Part shown: piece after piece, positions 16,601 through 63,729 of the stretch
Layout of the letters: every line of letters starts with the position of its first letter
Numbering within the stretch: position 1 is the first letter of the stretch
Assembly (NCBI GenBank): GCA_964106645.2
Contig: OZ067038.1
Direction: 5' to 3' (one strand)
Origin: Podarcis pityusensis
Taxonomy: Eukaryota
DNA: 64,000 bases
Notes under the pieces: generated by a model
The model's database searches: none
The model's input: the letters and a program-made list of their open reading frames with translations, nothing else
What the model was told of the DNA's origin: nothing
Program-made: the position numbers and the translations under genes

Positions 16601-19600
16601 TTCCTGGGCCATGCATAGAAGTCTCTGAGTCGCTATAAATAATATCATCATCGGAATAAGGAAAAAATAAGAGTAATCAATCAATATCAGGATGGCCACA
16701 AGTTCCTGACCCTTGGATTAGATGGATTAGACACTCTTGCTAGATGGACTGAATGAATGCCCTGATCCCAATATGATTTTCAGTAATGAAACCGGGTATT
16801 TCTCCCTGCAGGAGGTTGGGCCCACCATGGTTGGTGATGAGCACTCTGACCCAAACCTGATGCATTACCTTGGGGCCACGAAAAGAAACATGCTGGGGAA
16901 CCATTTGTAAGTATTTCTGTGGGTATTTGATCTCCCATCTTTTTGCTTCTCCATCCTTTGGTTAACCAGTCAGAGATTTTGAGAGTACAACGTGACTGTC
17001 GCCTTTTGATTTTGCATGTGCACTGCAAATTCAATACTTATGGGCAATTCAAATGTCCTTGTGTTCATCACAGGATGCCTGCAGTATCAAATAGCGCCTT
17101 GCATGTGTGAATAGGCCATCACAGCTACAGCACTGCAGGCAAGATGTTTCTATCACCTCTCAAACTGGAGGTTTTTCAGTGGATTTCGGTCCACACATCC
17201 AGTTGCTAGTCTAAATGAAACAAAAATAAAGTAACAAGTGTAGATAAGCCAAGTGAATATGAGAACCAGACTTCAGTTTAGTTTTTAGGCAATACTGAGT
17301 TCAATAGACCAGTGGTTTGACCCGTACAGTGTAAGGCAGTTTTTTATATGTTCATATGTGAATTGGAATCTAAAATTTGGAGGCACAGTGAAAAGTCCAT
17401 TACCAACTCAGTGTCTGCATTTTATGTCAACATGTGGAGGGCACCATGTTGGCTACCCCTGATCTAAGTGGTTAAAAACATTTCCTCACACACTGCATCT
17501 ATGGCCAAACCGTGCCCTGCTGGTCACCTTCATCATTCAGCTCTGTGAAAACTCTGTGTATTCTTTAGGATGGATGGAACACTCCACCCTGCTGCCGAGA
17601 TGTTTCCTGGACTTCAGTCCAAAGTAAATGAAAAGAGTCCTCTTCAGGCCTAGCTGGATCCACCCCTTCCATCTCATCCCCTGCTGGCCCTGCCTCTGCT
17701 ATCCATGCATTAGGGAGGGGAAAATCTGAAGCAAGAAGCCTGCTGTATACTTGTACACTCGCAGGTCAGGCTCCCTGCTTTAGACCTTTCCACTCAATGC
17801 ATGGGCAATGGGGTTGTGACCAGCAAGTGTGGCCCCACTCTTCCTCTCATGCAGTAAACATTGTGTGAGGGCTTAATGCCAGAGTAGGGTTGGAACAACA
17901 GTAAAAAAATAAAATAAAAATGAAGGCCCATTCATGCTGAGAAATTTCAGGAGGAGTGTTCCAGCCACTGTCCCTTGCAGGACTTTCATCTTGCTTCAGC
18001 CCCTAAATATATAGGAAGCTGCCTTGCACTGAGTCAGACCATTGGTCCATCTAGCTCTAAATTCCTGCACTGACTGGCAGCAGCTCTCCAGGATTTCAGG
18101 TGGAGCTCTCCCCCAGACCTACCTGGAGATGCCAGGGATTGGACCTGGGACCTTCCACATGCAGAGTAAATGTTTTACCACTTCCTCATCATTAGTTCAA
18201 CTTCTGCCTTGTGCATTCTCCCCTTCCTGTCCTCAGTCTGTTTTCAGTCTGGTGTTCCTTTGACACTCTCTCAAGTATGTCTGAAGCCCTTTTCAGGTGT
18301 TATAATCTCCCCCACAAGTAGCATTGTGTGATGAAGAGCACCCAAAGCTTTGGCCCACCATCACTGTTAATGTCGCCCTCCAATGCTGGAGAGTGAACTT
18401 TTGAAGCAGGAAGCCTCCTATACTTGTGGAAGGTCCCCACACAATACAGAACCCTGTAATTACGATTTAAACACACAGTTTTGAAGGTGATACTTTATTG
18501 TTTCATAACTATAAGGTGAGACTGAAAATCTCTTGAAACAAACAAGTATTTCAGATTTGAAGAAAAAGAAAATTAAGGAACATTTTTCTCCCACATGAAT
18601 ATTTACCTCAGAGATAAGAACTAAGAAATGGTGAAGAAGAACTAGCATCCCCCCCTTGTCATTTATAATCATGCCCTTCTTAAAACCACAATGCACTCTT
18701 AATGATGTTTTCTGCTCTTTCCCTTCTCATTGTCGTATTCCCTGATCGTACAGTTTATACTTGAAAGCAACTATTTTACTAGTAGAGAAAAAGCGATTTA
18801 ATGTGTAAAATTGCATTGCTGGAAAATGGCATTTGTTGGAAGCACCAGCTTGTCTTGAGAGGCCCCCTAGAATTCTGATCAGCTGCCTTCCTGCAAGTGC
18901 CTTCAAGAAGGAGTGAGGACCTTTAAGCCTTGGGTGATGAGTGTGGCCCTCGAGGCCTCATTTTGACCCTTGAGACTGTCCCTAGGCCAAGCCCCCTCCA
19001 GGTGTGTGCATGTGGGGGAAAACAACCCTCTGGCTTTTGTGTGGATGGAATGTAGCTTCATGTCGAAAGGTAACAGGGAGAAATGTAAAGTATTGCACTT
19101 GGGCAAAAAAAATGAGAGGTACAAATACAAGATGGGTGACACCTGGCTTGAGAGCAGTACATGTGAAAAGGATCTAGGAGTCTTGGTTGACCACAAACTT
19201 GACATGAGCCAACAGTGTGACGCGGCAGCTAAAAAAGCCAATGCAATTCTGGGCTGCATCAATAGGAGTATAGCATCTAGATCAAGGGAAGTAATGGTGC
19301 CACTGTATTCTGCTCTGGTCAGACCTCACCTGGAGTACTGTGTCCAGTTCTGGGCACCACAGTTCAAGAAGGACACTGACAAACTGGAACGTGTCCAGAG
19401 GAGGGCAACCAAAATGGTCAAAGGCCTGGAAACGATGCCTTATGAGGAACGGCTAAGGGAGCTGGGCATGTTTAGCCTGGAGAAGAGGAGGTTAAGGGGT
19501 GATATGATAGCCATGTTCAAATATATAAAAGAATGTCACATAGAGGAGGGAGAAAGGTTGTTTTCTGCTGCTCCAGAGAAGCGGACACGGAGCAATGGAT

Positions 19601-22465
19601 CCAAACTACAAGAAAGAAGATTCCACCTAAACATTAGGAAGAACTTCCTGACAGTAAGAGCTGTTCGACAGTGGAATTTGCTGCCAAGGAGTGTGGTGGA
19701 GTCTCCTTCTTTGGAGGTCTTTAAGCAGAGGCTTGACAACCATATGTCAGGAGTGCTCTGATGGTGTTTCCTGCTTGGCAGGGGGTTGGACTCGATGGCC
19801 CTTGTGGTCTCTTCCAACTCTATGATTCTATGATTCTATGATTCTAAGAGTCGCATCAATTGCTGCATCCACTTTTACCTCTAACCCCACCCACCACTGG
19901 CATGTTTCCCCTGGAAGGTGGTACATGAGAGAATGTGGCCTTTGGACTGAAAAAGTTACCTGCCACTGAGTTCTCGTGCTCACCAGAGAAGTGTCCTTGT
20001 TCATTTCCAGCAGGTGTGTGGCAACTATGTGGTGGGATGTATCAACAACAACAACTTTATTATTCATACAACAACAGCAGCAGCAACAACAACAACTTTA
20101 TTATTCATACCCTGCCCATCTGGCTGGGTCTCCCCAGCTACTCTGGGTGGCTTTCAGCATATCTAAAAACACAAAACATCAAGCATTAAAAACCTTGATG
20201 CGAAAGGAATCCTACCTGAGACCTTGTTTTAGATTGGATATAGTCAACATGGTGCCCTCCAGAATTTGGGAATTGCAACTCCCATCAGCCCCAGAAGGCA
20301 GGGCCAATGGTCAAGGATGATGGGGTTTGTAAACCAAAACAACTGGAGGGCAGCACGTGGCCTTTCCCTGCTCTAGGGCTTGCTGTGAGAAGTGTCACTC
20401 CCTCATGTCAACTTTTGTACTTGTCTCTGGCTGATGTGTCTCCAAACATTGCAAGTTCTAATTCTTACCCCATCCATTTCTAGGATGCAATCACTGTTTA
20501 GTCAGTAGATGCTTTTCCTGTCTCTGTTGCCACGGCAAAAGGCTGCGTAGCTTGCCTCCTCCCTTTTGTAATTGAAGAGGAGGAAGAGGGGGAAAAACAA
20601 AAAACAAACCTGCCTTGGTGGAATGTAGGGCTATACTTGGCATCTTTGCTGTGGGTGTGAAAACCTGCATTCCAGGAAGGTTAAGTCAGAGGGATCAGTT
20701 TAGAGAACCAAGTAGGAACACAACCAAGGGAGGCCTATTAAAATATCAAGGCAGAGATTGAGCCATACTAAGGGAAGATTGCTTTTCTAAGCAATTATGG
20801 CGCTCTTCAAGTTGTAAACGACTTGTGAAGGGCATATCTACAACACTTAAAGTGTTATAACTAAGTAGCTTCTAACTGTATTAAAAATCCAGTTGCACTA
20901 AATGATTATGCAGGTAATCCACTCTTTCAGTAAAATAATTCCTGTTAGTTTTAAAGCAGATGTAGGGAACCTGAGGCTCTCCAGATATCGTTGGATTCTA
21001 GCTCCAGCCAGAATGGTCAGTATTGAGGGATGATGGGGGTTCTGGTTCAGCCGGAACTAGAAGGTCACACGTTCCCCACCCCTGTTTTAAAGGTGCAAGT
21101 GGATGGTTTTTTAATTGAAAAAAGTATTTTGGAGTAAGCCTGGAAATCTTAAAACAAGCATGCATCAGCTGGGATTACAAATGTAGTTAACAAGAAAGTA
21201 CCTAAATAAATGGAGATTGTGTGGCTTGATCTGGGTCATACACAGCCATGGATTTCCCCACGGAGCAAGACAACCTCTCATCTAGCCCGAAATATGTGGC
21301 AAGAACCATCGGCGATGTTAATTATCCTTTATTAGTTTGGATGTATCAAGAGCAGAGTCGATTTGGATTCCCTTGTTAATTTCTTCTTATCAGTTAGATT
21401 CCCAAGTTGTAGGCCATCCTTCCTATTTCCTCATTATTCAATGGGCATTTTAATGTTTCTATAAGTGACCCCTAAACTGAAAAAAGAAGATAAGCTGAAG
21501 ATTCCACAGCCAAGTTCAACTCCAAACTTGCATTTACAATTGGTTTTGACCTCACTCTGCCATGAAAGTGTGTAAGCTTCATGCTAATCCTATCTAGATC
21601 ACCCAATACCCAAGTTGGCAAGAGCTGATGGGAGTTGTGGTCCAAAACATCTGAAGGGCACCAGGTTGGATAAAGCTGCTCCAGATCAGGGGTCAGCACC
21701 CTTCTTCAGCCGTGGGCCGGTCCACTGTCTCTCAGATCATGGGGTGTGCCAGACTATATTTTGAAGAAAAAACATGAATGAATTCCTATGCCCCACAAAT
21801 AACCCAGAGATGCATTTTAAATAAAAGGGCACATTCTACTCATGTAAAAACATGCTGATTCCCGGACCGTCCGCGGGCCGGATTGAGAAGGCAGTTGGGC
21901 CGCATCTAGCCCCCGGGCCTTAGGTTGCCTACCCCTGATCTGGATGGTGTGATTGGTCTGTATGGAGCCTACTACTAGCAAATCAGAGGTTAAACTAACC
22001 CCTTTCCAGGCCCAGGAGGAGCTGGAAAGAACTACCTTTGGCCCCAAGGCCTGAGGTTTCCCAACCCTGTCCTAAGTCTTCCAAAAAATTGGGCTGGCAA
22101 AGCCGTAACTGGGCATAACCCTGATCTGTACCACTTTAGTTTACACGTCCAGTTACTTTCTACAGATTGCGCTGTCAGAACCTTGAGGGAATTTGGTAGC
22201 CTTCCCCAAGTGGCGGTTACAGTTCAGTTGAAGTTATTTGGGAAACTGCTTCTTCTCATTGTTTCCACATCTTGTTTACAACAGCTGGGAATACTATGTG
22301 CACGATGCCCCTCGGATCGTCTTGGACAAGCTGGAGAAGCGTGGTTATCGTGTGATCAGCATGACGGGAGTGGGCCAGACACTGGTGTGGTGCCTCCACA
22401 AAGAAAGTACAGAGAACTCTGATTTTCTCTCTGCTCAAGATATTGCTGTAAATCGCCCAGCATAG
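11327..22465 (+). CDS. GCHFR: GTP cyclohydrolase I feedback regulator (GFRP); join(11327..11362, 16812..16906, 22285..22465), 103 aa
   Basis: [84 protein letters not shown] matches GFRP; canonical splice sites; 312 nt in frame. Confidence 0.97.
12550..12646. repeat. Degenerate (TATG)n microsatellite
   Basis: tatgtatgta-type low-complexity run. Confidence 0.7.
13617..13765 (-). mobile_element. (AAT)n tail plus L2-type LINE 3' end (related copies ~20060-20195 and 59356-59735)
   Basis: (AAT)n followed by CCCATCTG.CTGGGTTTCCCCAGCCACTCT.GG.GGCTTCCA shared among copies. Confidence 0.7.
14870..15308. mobile_element. Tc1/mariner (Tigger-like) MITE with an internal minisatellite
   Basis: TA TSD; TIR CAGTGGTGCCCCGCAAGACGA / TCGTCTTGCGAGGCACCACTG; second copy at 45715-45950. 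Confidence 0.88.
16812..16906 (+). CDS. GCHFR: GCHFR coding exon 2
   Basis: ccctgcag acceptor, [14 protein letters not shown]..., donor GTAAGT. Confidence 0.96.
19070..19846 (+). mobile_element. CR1 LINE, 5'-truncated, with an open ORF2 C-terminus
   Basis: ORF 18970-19761 reads KCKVLHLG...EKDLGVLVD...[15 protein letters not shown]...[11 protein letters not shown]; ends in (ATTCTATG)n tail. Confidence 0.95.
20957..21084. mobile_element. hAT MITE, older copy related to the 4750 family
   Basis: CAG...CTG ends; perfect 8-bp TSD TTTTAAAG. Confidence 0.75.
21687..21937. mobile_element. hAT-Charlie (MER30-like) non-autonomous element
   Basis: TIR CAGGGGT / ACCCCTG; internal GCGGGCCGGA / GGGCCGCAT motifs. 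Confidence 0.7.
22285..22465 (+). CDS. GCHFR: GCHFR coding exon 3 (TAG at 22463-22465; AATAAA at 23030)
   Basis: acaacag acceptor; [10 protein letters not shown]...CLHKE plus a 19-aa extension. Confidence 0.9.
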
Positions 22466-44583: not shown

Positions 44584-47500
44584 GTATGGTTTTCTCCACT
44601 AATCGTCTTTGTCATGAGAAAGGAGAGCTTGAAGAGTAGAACTTGGAACTATTATTCCAAAATGTTCCACTAGAACTTTCAATCAGGCTTTCAATCGTTT
44701 GTGACAGGTGCGCTTGCTCAAATATTACATATTTTAATGATGTGCCACTTGTTTAATCGTCTCCTGTCATTAATTTACTGGATGAGGTAGGTCTTAAGCA
44801 AATCACTTTCTTTTGTCCCAATTTTCTGTTTTGTACAGCTGTAAAGTGTATAGGTGCTAAGATAGGCAGAGGGGGCTCTCTTGCTAGTTCCTCCACCCTC
44901 AGAAGTTTGGGGTGTGGTGTGAAGGGGTGAAAATGTTATTTCTATGTTAGCTTTGCAAAGTAAGAATTAGGACTGATTAATACATTATGCTTTTTATACA
45001 CCTTTTCAATACAGTCTTGTATTGTTTTACTTTCATTGTTTATATAATAAAATATTTTGTAAACCACTTAGAGAGTATTCTTGCATTAAATGGAATATAA
45101 ATATATAAAATAAAACAAATATCCAATATCTGCAAAACTGTGTACAGTTACATGGGAGTAAGCATCACTGTGGGAAATTTCTGAATGAGTAGGCATGTTC
45201 TGTGTAGTGTGCACTTAAAAATGTAAGGTGTGCGTGAAGCAAACATACGTTTGGAATATTGTATGTATAAAAAGAACATTCACCAGAGACCCAGGATTCT
45301 CTTTTGGTAAATGAGTTTGGTGGCAAAGGTCTGCAGCTACATAATGTGTGGAATGGCTGAAATTAAGATTGATATCTTTGAGTACAGATTTAGTAAACAA
45401 AGGTTCATTTAATGTGTTTTATGGGAAGTATTTATGTTATGCTATTTATTTATTTAGAAAAAGTATAAGCAAAAACAACAAGCCAGGTTCAGTCATAAAG
45501 CATAATGTTTAGTCATAAAGCAAAACTAAAATTTACAAACCAGTTAAAAAAAAATATGGATAAACCCATCATTAAAACTAGGAAAACATTTAAAATAAAT
45601 ATCACTAAACCATGTGTCCGGTTTGGAGTGCTGAAATACTGTTAGCAAACACTTCCTGCATTCACATAAATTCTTTTGCTTTCAAAAGGTAGAAAATGGT
45701 CGAAGAAGGCTATACAGTGGTACCTCGCAAGATGAAAAACTCACAAGACGAAAGAGTTTTTCTTTTTTGAGTTGCTTTGCAAGACGAATTTCCCTATGGG
45801 CTTGCTTCGCAAGACGAAAAAGTCTTGCAAGTTTGTTTCCTTTTGGATTTTCAATGCATTCCTATGGGAAACCGTGCTTCGCAAGACGAAAAATTTGCAA
45901 GACGAAAAAACTCGCAGAACGAATTAATTTCGTCTTGCGAGGCACCACTGTAATGTTTTGATGTGGAAGCATCCCCTTTGTGAACCCTTTCCAAGAAGGA
46001 GTCATTCAGACTTCTTGGAATCATTTGCAGCTGGGTGTTAAGAGCACTTCCTTCCTTTTCCTCTTCCCTTCCTCTCTCAGTGTGGATGCAAGAAATGCGG
46101 GCGAGCGTTTTGCTCAGGCTGCCTGGGATTCAGTGCTGTTGTCCCCCATTGTGGAAACACCCAGCAGAAGGTCTGCAAGCAATGCCATGGGGAATTAACA
46201 AGGTAAGAAACCAGAGCTGTGGTTCTGATTGAGGGGTTCTCACGCTTTCCTTTTATGAAGGCAACACAGGACATTTCCTGCAGGGATTTGTCACTCCAGC
46301 ACTTCTACAGGCTAGGTGGGCATTCTCCACAACAATCTATATGATGCTGCAAGGAAGGAACGAAGGAAGTTTCTCAGGCTGTTTTTCAGCCTCAAGGCTG
46401 CATTCTCTCATAGGTAACTGGGCAGGGGCTGCATGCCTGCAAAGGGGGAGGGGGCAGAGGCAAAAGTAGTTAGCGCAACATACGTGCCTCTTAACTCTGT
46501 ACAGTAGGCTACATTCCAGTAATGCAAAAATCAGAAACTTCTACATCCCTCCCTGTCTCTCCATCTGTGCAAGCTAGCAGCATTATTCCATTTGAGGGAC
46601 ATGTTCTATCCAGGCAAAAGCATTCACGGAGGAAATGGAGCATGGCCAGTGAGGGCTACGTTTTGTCCCTGGGGCTGAGGTTCCTCAGTGAAATTGCTGA
46701 ACTTGTTAGAAAACTGGCATGTCAGGCTGAGGTTTAGGCTGGGACCTTTCTCCTTCGCATCTAGTTTTCTGTGTACTTTGATGGAAGATTGTTGCGGGGG
46801 TGCCTTCAGTCAGGCAATTCTTCATATGCAAGCCAGAGATCAACAAACAGCCTTGCCATCTCCCCTGCTGCTTTTGAGGCATAGGGTGAAATAGATTGGT
46901 GTTATACCCAGGACTTCTCAAGGATTGAAGGCAAGGCAAGATGGGGTTCTGTCTGAGGGCATGTCCTGCCATGATTAAGAATAACATTTGTTGATAAACC
47001 AGAGAGAGGAGCTGAGGGAAGTCGGGGGAGAGGGGAGGGGGGAAATGGGGGGGCAATTAAGGATGATATGTTTTTTGATAAAATGTTTTTTTGAAATCCC
47101 TAATTAAAAAAATTTAAAGAAAAAAAGAAGGGATTTATGTTCTGCCATTGTGACATTTCTCCTTTTGCTTTACAGTGGCTCACCTCAGTCAAACGCAGCT
47201 AAATGGTCTCCACCAGAGAACTATAAAAAGTGAGTTCTATATAATCTATCTATCTATATATTATCTATTAAATTTGTATACTGCTGTTCATCTGAAGATC
47301 ACAGGATGATTCATAGCATAAAAAGACAAAGTGAGAACACAAAATACATAATAAAAACGAGAGCAAAAACAAACCAATAACCCCATCCCACAAATGCATT
47401 TAAAAGGATGCCAAAGCCAAAGATGCCAAAGACCTGGTTAAAGAGAAATGTTTTCACCTGGTCCCTAAATATATGTAATGAAGATGCCAGGTGAGCCTCC

Positions 47501-59404: not shown

Positions 59405-62400
59405 TTATTTGTACCCCGCCCATCTGGCTGGGTTTCCCCAGCCACTCTGGGCGGCTTCCAACAAAGATTAAAAATACATTAAAATGTCACACACTGAAAA
59501 CTTCCCTCAACAGGGCTGCCTTCAGATGTCTTCTGAATGTCAAGTAGTTGTTTATCTCTTTGACATCTGATGGGAGGGTGTTCCACAGGGCGGGTGCCAC
59601 TACCAAGAAGGCCCTCTGCCTGGTTCCCTGTAGCTTCGCTTCTCGCAGTGAGGGAACTGCCAGAAGGCCCTCGGCACTGGACCTCAGTGTCCGGGCAGAA
59701 CGATGGGGGTGGAGACACTCCTTCAGGTATACTGTGCCATCTGATGATGGAATGGAAGTGACCAGGGAACAGCCTTTATTCTTCTAAGAATACACCCGTC
59801 GGGGGTGTATTAGTGGTACATGCTATCACGTGGTCCTTTATTCTCTCTCCAGCGTTACAGGGACTAGAAATACACTAAAGAATGCGAACCAAAATAAAAA
59901 CCCATCTTCCCATAGGGAGGGCAAATCTGCAAAGGAGGGCAAGAAACATAAGATGATGATGGGCCGTCTTGATGAATTGCATCTTTAGCTCCTCAGTTTC
60001 CTCTTCTTTCTCTTGCAGTGACTTTGGATGACTACAGATTCCCCAATAGTGATGAAGAAATAGAAGAAGAAGAAGCCATTCAGAGAGTTTTGAAACAGGT
60101 CCATAGTAATTGGAATTGAGTTTTGCATTTGTTAAGCCTCTTGTTTTTGCCTTGCTGCAAAGACAAGATTTCTGCTATGCCCAGCTTCTTATCTTTGCTG
60201 TAAATCCATCCTCAGAGTGTGCTCCTAATGGTTTTCCCAAATTAGTCCATAAGCCTTGTAGAGTACTATGTAGAGCTTTCACTCTATTAAAGAAATCGTG
60301 TAATGCAGTTCCTGTGCGCGTCAGCTTAGAGTTAAAATGAAACTTACTCCCATTAAAATATGTGGACAACAGCCACTGTAGTCAATTAACTGTAGGAGTT
60401 GTGTAGTACAATTTTATTTATCTGTAAACTCATTTATAGGTTGCCTTTTGGGGTATAGCCCATCCAAGGCAGCTTACAGCATCATAAAAAGCAATACCAT
60501 CTAAAACTCACAATGGCAGCCGTTCAGCAATTGGATGCATGTTTACTCAAAACTAAAGCATTCTGTAATCTTTGGGCTCTTCCTGCAGGCTCACAACAAG
60601 GGGAGGGGAATAGGAAGTACGTAGTAAGATGAACAAATATTTGCTATTCAGTGGAAGCAATGAAAGAATGATGAAACAAAGATAGATGTAAGAAAAATAA
60701 TAAAAATCAAAGCTGTCATGCTTGAGACTTTTGAAAAGGGTTTTGAGAGGCAGAAAGACAAGCCATGCAAATGTCTGAAGGGAAGCGCATCCATATTATT
60801 GATTTTGTTACATAATTTCTAGCCAGAGGAGCTACCCACAACAACCTGTGAGGTAGGTTAGAGATATTAATTAGCTGAGTAGGAATTTGAACCCAGGTGC
60901 TCCCTGAGTATTTGATGACTAGTAATAGTATTTTTGGTCATAAATGCCCTTTGTAAAGCTGCTTTCTTTCCTGCCCAATAGTTAATCTGGTGGCTGCATG
61001 TTTGTTTACTAAACCAAAGATTAAGGAAGTAGTAGAAGAAAGACACTTCTGAGAGGAAGGTTTGTGTGAAGAAAAGTCTTTTGTTTCAACTGCTGTTGTT
61101 TCTGCCTTCAGCTTACTGAGGAGGCGGCTCTGGATGAAGCAAGCGGCTTCAATATTTCTCCAGATCGATCCACCCAACCAGCGACAGCCCAACAGAAACC
61201 AGCCAGGAAACCCGAGCAAGTAAGCAGCCAATTCAATCCTATATTCAGTGCTTTTTTTTTCTAAAAAAATGTTTGGGGGTACTCTCATTTCGACTCAAGA
61301 AAATCAGTGTTTTATAGCTCAAATCAGGAAAAATAAATACAGTAAATGGACAAAAGTACAAAGATTCACAAAATGTTTAGGGGTATGCGTACCCCCACAA
61401 AAAAGCACTGCCTATATGTGTGGCTTTCTCTGACTTTGCTGTGCTCAGTGCAGTGTCAGGCTGATCCCAGCAAGGCCCTTTTTAGTTTAGGTGTCATCCC
61501 ATCGTGCTAAATAGCACCTAAACAGAAACAACAACAAAATGCCCATGGGCCTAATGGTTAAGCTGAGAAGCGAAAGACAAAATGACTCCTCGAAGGCCAG
61601 CTAATTCTGAGCCACATTCTGTGTCCTAGTTCTGTGTTATGGCAAACAATTCAAAGCCCTCCAGCTGTAGGCAAAATTGATAGGTGTCCTCTTCTAGAAC
61701 AATAGGTTTTGATGTTTATGTGAGCAAGAAGAGATGCCCGAAGTTGTGTGTGCACTTTAAAGTAAATAGCAATCAAGCATGACTGGTGCTAATGTGGGAA
61801 ATAACAAACAGTTCTTCCACATGCTTCCTCTGTGACTTTACAAAACTCACGTCAAGGCCTCATCGCTTCAGATGGGCCCTTCCTGTACCAAGCAAAAGCG
61901 GTTCTTCCTTTATTGCTTGGGCTGTTCTGCATTGTCTTCAGGTGCCCAATATTGCACAGGGTTAGAAGTGTATTCTGGGGCCTGCAGCAGAGTTCGTAGC
62001 AGCTCAGTTTTATTTTATTTTTTGAGTTTCTGGTCCTTGTGGCTGTAAGATTTTAATACTTCACATTTATGCAGACATTTCAGGTGTCTCAAACGTTTCA
62101 TGTATATTCCCAGTATATTCCTTAAAACAGCCCTGTAACATGGGGTAACACCAGTTACAGAATCACAAAACAGAGAAACCAGTAGGAGAACACTTCAATC
62201 TCCCAGGACATTCTATACAAGATCTCAAAGTAGCTGTTTTACTACAAAGGAATTTCAGAAATAGACTGGAAAGAGAAGCTGCTGAATTACAACTCATTAC
62301 CAAACTTAAAACAATGGAGAGACCTGGTCTGAACAGAGACATCGGATTCTTATCTCATTATACATGACTAAGCCATTTCTCACCTTCTCACCCCTTGCCT

Positions 62401-63729
62401 TTTCCTGTAAGACCTATTACAGTCGTTAAGAGTCGTCAACAGGCTCATCTCAGCTATCTGCCAATCTCCGATTCCCACCACCCTTCTAAGTAATACCCCT
62501 CCCCACCTTCTCAATATATAGAAGGATCTGGCAACTTCTGTTTCAGTGTATCTGAAGAAGTGTGCATGCACACGAAAGCTTATACCAAGAACTAACTTAG
62601 TTGGTCTTTAAGGTGCTACAGGAAGGAATTTTTTTATTTCGACCATGGGGTAACACCATGAGCATCGTATTGTACATGGTGGTGAGGAGGAGGGAATATA
62701 GGCCTAGAATGAAAGAAGAACTGTCTCAGGTAAGATGAGGCCTGAAGCAGGAAATTGATGGTTCATATTAGTAACACAGTGGTTATCTCAAATCTTCAAA
62801 AAAAGAATGTGTATACAGTAGTACCTCTGGTTAAGAACTTAATTCGTTCCGGAGCTCTGTTCTTAACCTGAAACCGTTCTTAACCTGAGGTACCACTTTA
62901 GCTAATGGGGCCTCCCGCTGCCACTGCGCCCCCGGTGCATGATTTCTGTTCTCATCCTGAGGTAAAGTTCTTAACCTGAGGTACTACTTCCGGGTTTGCG
63001 GAGTCTGTAACCTGAAGCATTTGTAACCCAAAGCGTTTGTAACCCGAGGTACCACTGTATATGTAGATGTGTGCATAGCATATATTTAAAATGCTGTGAT
63101 CTTCAGGAAACAGAGTCCTGCGCCCTATCTAGTTCAGTTTCTTACCTGCTGGCCTCCAGTCTTAGGTGGGACCTTGGTGGTCATGCAGTCCAACCCATGG
63201 CTGAGTGTGGGATCTGCAATCCAGGAAACAACTACAGCATCCCTTCTATGTGCTCTGACTGCCAATCACATCTTTCCTCTTACACTCATGTGGCTTCCTG
63301 ACCTCCCCAAAAACAAATAACGCATAGGCAAGGTGTGTGTTTGTTTTTAATTTTTAAAAACTGGAATTAAAAAAAAATTGAAATGAGAACATTACATGAT
63401 ATATGTAGAAATATTGCACTGATTTTGATAAGTGGGTTTGGGTTTGTAATTGGTGCAAAGTTGTAGTGGGAGGAATTTTGCAGAATGCAAACAGTGAAGG
63501 CAATGTCACGCAGCTCCCCATTCACACCAGAAGGTACTCTTGGAGTTTCTGTTGCAACATCTATGCATATTACCCTTTCCCTTTAGGGAAAAGCTCCAGC
63601 GGTTGCTAAACCTCTCGTCTTACCGGACAGCGACGAGGAAGAGCTGCCCTGGTGCTGCATCTGCAACGAGGATGCTGTCCTACGCTGCCACGCCTGTGAT
63701 GACGACCTCTACTGCCAGCGATGCTTCCG
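44527..63729 (+). CDS. ZFYVE19: ZFYVE19/ANCHR abscission/NoCut checkpoint regulator, 3'-incomplete; join(44527..44583, 46081..46202, 47176..47229, 49309..49469, 50713..50858, 53297..53402, 57646..57852, 60019..60098, 61112..61219, 63587..63729)
   Basis: [34 protein letters not shown]...QKVCKQCH (FYVE); [16 protein letters not shown]; MIM1-like RLAAL helices; [32 protein letters not shown] (B-box); phases are consistent. Confidence 0.96.
45715..45950. mobile_element. Tigger-like MITE, same family as 14870-15308
   Basis: TA TSD; TIR CAGTGGTACCTCGCAAGA / TCTTGCGAGGCACCACTG. Confidence 0.85.
46081..46202 (+). CDS. ZFYVE19: ZFYVE19 coding exon 2 (FYVE)
   Basis: [40 protein letters not shown]. 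Confidence 0.95.
47176..47229 (+). CDS. ZFYVE19: ZFYVE19 coding exon 3
   Basis: [17 protein letters not shown]; donor GTGAGT. Confidence 0.93.
47260..48620 (-). mobile_element. Cluster of L2 LINE fragments
   Basis: Minus ORF 47993-48208 has [11 protein letters not shown]...[11 protein letters not shown] (RT); WNALP...F...KT.LF 3' ends at ~47450 and ~48430. Confidence 0.85.
49309..49469 (+). CDS. ZFYVE19: ZFYVE19 coding exon 4
   Basis: RVAALEAKQ...[24 protein letters not shown]. Confidence 0.94.
50713..50858 (+). CDS. ZFYVE19: ZFYVE19 coding exon 5
   Basis: [48 protein letters not shown]. Confidence 0.94.
50899..51147. mobile_element. Tigger-like MITE adjoining a (TC)n(TA)n microsatellite
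   Basis: CAGTGGTCCCTTAGTTT ... AAACCAAGGTACTACT ends at TA. Confidence 0.7.
51335..52351 (+). mobile_element. Sauria SINE interrupted by nested insertions
   Basis: GGGACGTGGGTGGCGCTGTGGTCTA head, GTAGATAAATAGGTACC body and ACCTTT tail; colinear with the intact copy at 57007. Confidence 0.88.
51487..52053. mobile_element. hAT (Blackjack-like) element nested in the Sauria SINE
   Basis: TIR CATAGCTGTCAA / TTGACAGCTATG; perfect 8-bp TSD GGTGAGCT; subterminal GTCCCTTATT repeats. Confidence 0.88.
53297..53402 (+). CDS. ZFYVE19: ZFYVE19 coding exon 6 (5' boundary uncertain: 53297 after AG, or 53288 after AC)
   Basis: (VHE)[35 protein letters not shown]. Confidence 0.82.
53649..54358. mobile_element. 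Tigger-like MITE hosting a nested insertion; uninterrupted inverted copy at 62816-63057
   Basis: TA TSD; TIR CAGTGGTACCT / AGGTACCACTG. Confidence 0.88.
53804..54269. mobile_element. Tc2/pogo-type mariner MITE, GC-rich, nested
   Basis: TIR CCGTATTTTTTCGCCCTATAGGACGCAC / GTGCGTCCTATGGGACGAAAAATACGG; TA TSD. Confidence 0.9.
54474..54715. mobile_element. Tigger-like MITE (relative at 57981-58221)
   Basis: TA TSD; TIR CAGTGGTACCTTGGTT / AACCAAGGTTCCACTG. Confidence 0.85.
57007..57390 (+). mobile_element. Full-length Sauria SINE
   Basis: Head GGGTGGCGCTGTGGTCTAAACCACTGAG; tail CCTTTACCTTTGCCTTT; imperfect TSD TACCGATTAGATG / TACTGATCAGATG. Confidence 0.9.
57646..57852 (+). CDS. ZFYVE19: ZFYVE19 coding exon 7
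   Basis: [11 protein letters not shown]...[43 protein letters not shown]. Confidence 0.94.
57981..58221. mobile_element. Tigger-like MITE
   Basis: TA TSD; TIR CAGTCAAA..TCGGTT / AACCGAGGTTTGACTG; body similar to the 54474 copy. Confidence 0.8.
59356..59735 (-). mobile_element. (AAT)n microsatellite tail plus L2 LINE 3' fragment
   Basis: Long (AAT)n run followed by L2-type sequence (minus strand R-AF-V-AP-LWN-LP motif region). Confidence 0.8.
60019..60098 (+). CDS. ZFYVE19: ZFYVE19 coding exon 8
   Basis: [27 protein letters not shown]. Confidence 0.94.
61112..61219 (+). CDS. ZFYVE19: ZFYVE19 coding exon 9
   Basis: [18 protein letters not shown]...KPEQ; donor GTAAGC. Confidence 0.93.
61246..61410. 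mobile_element. hAT MITE, inverted copy of the 10017-10180 family
   Basis: TIR CAGTGCTTTTT; TSD CCTATATT / CCTATATG. Confidence 0.82.
62154..62643 (+). mobile_element. Penelope-like retroelement 3' fragment (GIY-YIG endonuclease C-terminus + 3' UTR/pLTR)
   Basis: Frame 62155-62367 reads [27 protein letters not shown]...[23 protein letters not shown]; perfect 15-bp TSD CATGGGGTAACACCA (62139-62153, 62644-62658). Confidence 0.9.
62548..62585 (+). ncRNA. Minimal type I hammerhead ribozyme within the Penelope element
   Basis: GTAT-CTGAAGA-A-GTGTG(CATG)CACAC-GAAA-GC-TT-ATAC: stem I GTAT/ATAC, core CUGANGA and GAAA, stem II hairpin, palindromic AGCU stem III. Confidence 0.8.
62816..63057. mobile_element. 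Tigger-like MITE (empty-site counterpart of 53649-54358)
   Basis: TA TSD; TIR CAGTAGTACCTC / GAGGTACCACTG. Confidence 0.86.
63587..63729 (+). CDS. ZFYVE19: ZFYVE19 coding exon 10 (B-box)
   Basis: [47 protein letters not shown]; donor GTAATG. Confidence 0.93.

Follow-up and report, generated by a model that had tools for sequence, protein, structure and literature searches.

The insertion at 62154–62643 in the Podarcis pityusensis DNA analysed here (one stretch of 64,000 nucleotides, hereafter the window) is very probably a recent, non-fixed, 5'-truncated copy of a young Neptune-type Penelope-like element (PLE), whose hammerhead ribozyme is likely part of the 5' UTR of the element itself and probably inert in the intron that received it. 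The junctions of this copy and of its relatives also favour, at somewhat better than even probability, a model in which PLEs insert by two-site twin priming. Head-to-head arms, a one-sided tail and single copies would then be one outcome with different arm lengths, the window insert being an extreme case (11 versus 485 nt), and the hammerhead would be cap-proximal on templates that are mostly left uncut.

The host gene is one that we take to be ZFYVE19, in a local gene order presumably as in human. An upstream exon on the + strand (46078–46203) matches FYVE at an E value of 1.6e-4, below the curated cut-off, and the neighbouring genes match GFRP and BORG_CEP; the homology searches for the gene name returned no named relative of the 47-aa exon. 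The same intron holds a high-copy repeat fragment at 61275–61404, visible as a depth spike, and a very high-copy insertion at 62812–63061 with 27-nt terminal inverted repeats and TA ends, which is present in the repeat depth of all four sequencing runs and which we assume to be a Tc1/mariner-type MITE. Elsewhere in the window, a GCHFR-like gene contains a 263-aa open frame (18967–19758) that presumably resembles the end of a CR1-type reverse transcriptase (RT). The features of the intron and the insertion are as follows.

61220–63586, + strand: host intron (GT..AG), 2,367 bp, whose flanking exons join in frame
62139–62153, + strand: left target-site duplication (TSD), CATGGGGTAACACCA, exact; the empty allele joins 62138 to 62644 in runs X2, X3 and X8
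62151–62161, − strand: inverted stub of 11 nt; it is element +125..+135 (the tail end, with the second RT start site) in reverse complement
62159–62643, + strand: sense arm of the Neptune-type element, 485 nt, tailless, with its 3' end at the first RT start site (+99)
62161–62367, + strand: end of the element ORF, the last 68 codons (62161–62364) and the stop; C-terminal end of the endonuclease, catalytic motif missing
62515–62522, + strand: TATA-like box, TATATAGA, 30 nt before the inferred start; putative function
62543–62547, + strand: Inr-like TCAGT, with A62545 as +1, the inferred RNA start; arm 5' ends and mirror junctions centre here
62548–62585, + strand: minimal type I hammerhead, +4..+41, CUU triplet, predicted cut 62581/62582
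62586–62643, + strand: remainder of the element 5' UTR, as far as RT start site 1; the ORF ATG of full copies comes next, at +101
62644–62658, + strand: right TSD, the same CATGGGGTAACACCA, of which bases 2–5 (ATGG) match the element's continuation

The 490-bp insert between exact 15-bp repeats had been called by the original prediction, and its coordinates were reproduced exactly; 3 nt of the 15-nt TSD also match element sequence. Comparison with the natural full-length copy L033 identified the stub at the left junction, where the first five nucleotides of the insert (GTTAC) are not sense element sequence and instead form part of an inverted piece of the element tail. The stub reads CCAGTTACAGA, with 3 nt common to the TSD, 3 nt common to the sense arm and 5 nt of its own. 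The sense arm is 100% identical to four other places in the genome and differs from full-length copies by 1–6 mismatches in ∼485 bases (1–2 for L031 and L033). Its 99.6% identity to L033, whose ORF matches RVT_1 and GIY-YIG, upholds the earlier assignment to a Penelope-like element. The unbroken GIY-YIG C-terminal frame stood in part: the frame is open, but it spans 68 codons downstream of the GIY-YIG motif, and a Pfam search with it alone gave no match, its identity coming from the end of the full-length ORF that matches both domains. As only these last codons are present, the window copy encodes nothing active.

A DNA search of the 1.5-Gb genome returned 2,128 candidates for the element, of which 40 were scored; nearly all of these 40 are 99–100% identical. 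Tandem copies define a unit of 3,010 bp, and the full-length copy L033 carries a 910-aa ORF with matches to RVT_1 (E 3e-12) and GIY-YIG (E 3e-5), both above cut-off. A C-x4-C-x2-C linker (CNKPRCQLC) precedes the endonuclease (EN), which places the element with the Neptune or Nematis clade, since a CX2-5CxxC zinc-finger-like linker between RT and EN is described as the mark of these clades (PMC8557442), and the vertebrate distribution given in the available part of 10.64898/2026.07.22.740005 favours Neptune over Nematis. From its sequence the element reads as a Neptune-type EN+ PLE, and the family displays the traits of such elements: a single ORF with RT and GIY-YIG, tandem pseudo-LTRs (pLTRs), an inverted 5'-truncated arm, a one-sided tail and a TSD. 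About 0.9 kb past the full-length element with the intact ORF lies a 335-aa leucine-rich-repeat-like open frame (L033:7496–8500). Over the ORF end and 3' UTR (window 62111–62514), repeat depth in run X3 is ∼20-fold lower than in X1 and X2, which hints at a lineage-specific burst of the element, depth here not being copy number.

The youth of the window copy is also apparent from its distribution among individuals, where occupancy of the site was read from the contigs of four DNA runs as presence or absence, not allele frequency. The site is empty in three of the four, X2, X3 and X8 each having one contig across the unoccupied target, and in the carrier run X1 a contig extends 33 nt into the insert; X1 and X2 bear the same species label, and X1, from which the assembly may itself derive, is not independent support. 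An insertion that is not fixed lacks a basic property of a host regulatory element, and the fixation and conservation at the orthologous site that would characterise an exapted ribozyme or host switch were not found in X2, X3 and X8. The intactness of the hammerhead reflects youth, because the arm is 99.8–100% identical to its sister copies.

The hammerhead itself was found with all the parts listed for it (GUAU / CUGAAGA / A / GUGUG-CAUG-CACAC / GAAA / GC / UU / AUAC), on the + strand and hence in the sense strand of the intron as claimed, with the predicted scissile bond after U62581. It is the single match in the window to a minimal-hammerhead descriptor, versus 0.005 matches per shuffled window (200 shuffles), and it is a lone copy, with no second one in the window or the next 10 kb. 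The traits of the minimal type I class are present: CUGANGA and GAAA boxes, helices I and II, an NUH triplet and palindromic 15.2/16.2, and H in this triplet includes U (PMC3138052). The covariance-model check that had been proposed, with curated hammerhead families, does not recover the motif, as an Rfam search of the window gave no hammerhead up to E 10 and three chance matches at E 5–7. We agree that low activity is likely. Cleavage by U17 hammerheads is slow. No measured rate for the CUU triplet was found in the parts of PMC11875169 and PMC3138052 that were available.

The identical 38-nt hammerhead occurs in 1,677 exact copies in the genome (820 on + and 857 on −); of a sister form, in which the loop is CUUG and the triplet CUC, there are 3,892. 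Across 1.26 Mb of loci the only differences between these two common forms are in loop II and at position 17, which is U17 in the window subfamily versus C17 in the sister subfamily, and the stems are invariant. Approximately one-fifth of sites carry the motif on both strands (19 head-to-head pairs, counted by eye, in the first 100 of the 1,677 places). A non-LTR retrozyme was rejected as the source, there being no tandem monomers and a single hammerhead in the window and the next 10 kb, as was a role of the palindromic loop II as a dimer-initiation signal, since the CUUG loop of the sister form is non-palindromic. Two-unit hammerhead tandems are seen at loci L044, L093 and L188, and L180:4939–5160 (G000:C1:6051937–6052122) holds a head-to-tail run of three 74-nt units, all of them with an intact CUC hammerhead; judged by its sequence, this natural cis trimer would be more likely to be active than the window copy.

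The motif closely resembles the minimal hammerheads described in PMC4209133, with which it shares a 4-bp helix I, one extra base between positions 9 and 10.1, a G10.1–C11.1 pair, palindromic 15.2/16.2 without loop 3, and dispersal as thousands of single copies, and which are reported there in turtles and snakes. It differs from the Schistosoma families of that study in helix II (5 bp here versus 7–8), and from the high motif variability per genome noted there in having 1,677 identical copies, as in the D. virilis exception.

Within the element, numbered from A62545 as +1, the hammerhead is likely cap-proximal, 3 nt behind the start and within the 5' UTR, the start site being called from the spacing of motifs and from DNA junctions. 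The Inr-like start follows the TATA-like box at a distance of exactly 30 nt, and the ORF ATG at +101 is 60 nt past the ribozyme (+4..+41). Rotifer pLTRs similarly carry TATA and Inr-like motifs (PMC3846280). Arms were collected from the first 100 of 1,768 places of a motif 3' of the ribozyme, plus 5 extra rows, giving a set of 104 without the window copy and with one arm counted twice. Their 5' ends fall at −1..+6 in 49/104 and at +37..+39 in 4/104 (two insertions), and 977 mirror-junction matches centre on the inferred start site. We regard it as unlikely that this sharp 5' boundary at +1..+6 reflects a splice acceptor, or stalling of the RT at the hammerhead fold, instead of a transcription start. 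The boundary, TTCTGTTTCAG followed by TG, does fit a splice acceptor, and in D. virilis Penelope the end of an intron abuts helix I (PMC4209133); however, junctions examined by eye share no upstream exon, their extra bases being other arm, target or GT slip, the spacing of the TATA-like box is that of other pLTRs (PMC3846280), and a stalling RT should stop where it meets the 3' side of a stem and not beyond the stem's 5' end. A spliced leader was rejected because the junctions examined by eye have no common upstream exon. With a cap-proximal ribozyme in the 5' UTR, a hammerhead cut would decap the element RNA.

Whether such cuts are made can be approached through the DNA junctions of genome copies, since frequent copying of cut RNA would leave arms that start at +38, and only 4 of the 104 arms start within one base of it. 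Mirror junctions gave an apparent signal in a first set of 43, of which 13 have both arms at +38..+41 (by eye). Flank controls do not sustain it: for one sequence variant, 13/21 mirror junctions have both arms at +42..+54, and in a matched control from the main sister subfamily the same holds for 34 of the 50 listed (55 in total). We therefore rejected these junctions as fossils of ribozyme-cut RNA, because 13 in 4 nt (3.3 per nt) versus at least 47 in 13 nt (3.6 per nt) abolishes the apparent 3-fold peak. A per-arm tally by eye of the first 100 of 323 matches, 5 A-insertion variants dropped, gave 11 arms at +37 and 9 at +38, six of these 20 coming from one tandem locus, with equal peaks at other A positions (+32 10, +40 9, +43 9, +46 12). 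DNA junction counts of the genome copies thus show no excess at the predicted cut site, and a cut fraction of a percent or two may be compatible with them. Mixed junctions between start site and cut site, considered as a one-RNA versus two-RNA test (2/16 at +38..+41), became uninformative once the cut-site peak failed. As a single case, locus L123 (G000:C2:30803585–30803840) has six tandem 35–36-nt units that start at +37/+38, beside the predicted cut site, and reads as repeated template jumps at one point.

The lack of a cut-site excess agrees with published work, in which minimal hammerheads are described as inactive as monomers and of low activity as dimers (PMC4209133), and in which the Anolis carolinensis element PAc uses uncut RNA as its main template, is cleaved only with element protein and, in the data presented, has no RNA-seq ends at the cut (PMC11167929). 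Nearest-neighbour folding, which ignores tertiary contacts and protein, gives predicted probabilities of 0.52 for stem I and 0.98 for stem II in element +1..+140 RNA, versus at most 0.01 for stem I in the window copy in five contexts and 0.1–0.4 for stem II with upstream sequence, a drop attributable to predicted pairing of −15..−1 with the core. The hammerhead core is thus predicted to be sequestered in the host pre-mRNA. Among predicted dimers, the productive form (−10.9 kcal/mol) compares with a stem-II duplex at −31.2 kcal/mol that leaves helix III unformed. The hammerhead may act as a slow, protein-assisted brake or processing step on the element RNA in its own ribonucleoprotein, most RNA templates being used uncut, and the copy in ZFYVE19 pre-mRNA, which has upstream sequence and no tail, would misfold.

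In the original prediction, this copy was a switch in which abundant Penelope RNA cuts the intronic hammerhead in trans and so tunes ZFYVE19 to transposon activity. We consider this extremely improbable. The motif is intact, in sense orientation and alone, with thousands of copies and intact ORFs in the genome partner RNA could be abundant, and a productive double hammerhead can be drawn, but a site that most runs, X2 included, lack and a motif that is one of 1,677 + 3,892 do not suit a host switch. Moreover, the sequence is intact through youth, the core is predicted to be sequestered with the non-productive dimer favoured by 20 kcal/mol, and at roughly one site in five the motif is in any case present on both strands. 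Nor does cleavage upon pairing with a second RNA alone accord with the one lizard relative that has been tested, which needed element protein in the experiments described in PMC11167929.

Depletion of sense-oriented intronic copies had been named beforehand as an observation on which the switch would depend, and none that is strong emerged from a crude proxy for orientation, the strand skew of flanks, read without gene annotation at loci from one chromosome. Calibrated on window genes, the proxy took values of +0.046, +0.046 and −0.10, each with the expected sign, and a stretch taken as intergenic gave an unexplained −0.08. It was then applied to 71 single-arm copies that contain the ribozyme core (32 + 39/40 fetched copies, excluding two-strand loci and arms whose start lies beyond +8); their mean skew is 0.002 ± 0.007, with 35/71 positive and, beyond 0.04, 16 positive versus 16 negative copies; a full purge of sense copies would give about −0.02 to −0.04 if half are intronic. 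Strong depletion is therefore unlikely, and mild depletion is compatible with the proxy. In the literature searched, no paper on the intronic orientation of Penelope hammerheads was found.

An accidental effect restricted to carriers, through protein-assisted cleavage or through a TATA/Inr-like promoter firing a sense transcript into the next exon, is easier to accommodate than a switch and still quite improbable. In its favour, 386 nt of sequence ahead of the inferred start survive in the copy, together with TATA-like and Inr-like motifs, and the next exon follows 1 kb downstream. Against such an effect, a simple scan of the insert found no poly(A) hexamer and no acceptor-like match, and sense copies have not been strongly purged. 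A cut inside an intron often leaves splicing intact, which also counts against it. Protein-assisted cleavage has been seen in vitro, but the window copy has neither the tail nor the ORF start, the protein-binding site proposed in PMC11167929.

Arm 3' ends are bimodal, with 55/104 at +82..+104 and 45/104 at +123..+142. Five complex loci aside, there are 29 head-to-head pairs, of which 27 combine an arm from one RT start site with an arm from the other and have a 12–15-bp TSD; in the remaining 2/29 the tail follows a small slip (by eye). The 5' ends of the two arms in such pairs correlate (rho 0.63), and in sister insertions the longest flanking repeat found by script is 12–15 bp, mostly 12–13. 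Among 32 single-arm insertions, only 4 have a clear inverted stub, the window copy included (3 by script, 1 by eye), which counts against the generality of two-site priming. PAc likewise has two RT starts with extension of both strands (PMC11167929), and these sites are adjacent, internal and bound a 30–40-nt tail as here. PAc belongs to Poseidon, the clade of the published biochemistry, whereas the present element is Neptune-type; the PAc ORF starts in stem II whereas the hammerhead here lies wholly in the 5' UTR, and the use of one RT start site per arm, seen here in genomic pairs, is not stated for PAc in the available part of PMC11167929.

Head-to-head arms, a tail at one end, partial tandems and pLTRs with TATA and Inr-like motifs are also known from other EN+ PLE insertions, where the shape is explained by self-priming on an antisense template or by endonuclease resolution (PMC3846280, PMC8557442). 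The very unequal arms of the window insert, with 485 nt from site 1 and 11 nt from site 2, would be difficult to produce from a single folded-back cDNA, and the +125..+135 stub cannot come from fold-back since site-1 cDNA cannot contain that sequence. As an 11-nt site-2 cDNA cannot template 485 nt either, priming by both DNA ends on RNA would be the simplest account. In the twin-priming model, the element protein would cut the target with a 12–15-nt stagger and both 3' ends would prime RT on element RNA. The bottom strand would prime at site 1 (+99) and copy 485 nt, the terminal CCA of the top strand would pair with +133..+135 at site 2 and be extended by ∼8 nt, and the two cDNA products would join through a 3-nt overlap. 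Twin priming for PLEs was not found in titles and the openings of abstracts; subscription papers and supplements may describe the family or the pairing.

Mirror junctions in genome G000 cluster at palindromes and hairpins (the helix III AGCT, the AACTA/TAGTT hairpin at +46..+58, and stem II), which points to microhomology-guided joining of the two arms. Two identical mirror junctions lie 12 kb apart (G000:C1:3017397 and C1:3029395), which suggests a local duplication or an assembly repeat.

A host switch would have been striking, and the evidence points to an ordinary passenger. As a presence/absence polymorphism, the insertion would in heterozygotes permit an allele-against-allele test of a lone intronic minimal hammerhead. 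The family to which it belongs, young, with intact ORFs and thousands of near-identical copies, provides a clean record of the Penelope insertion cycle, and its junction data link the two RT start sites observed in vitro to the long-noted inverted ends and one-sided tail.
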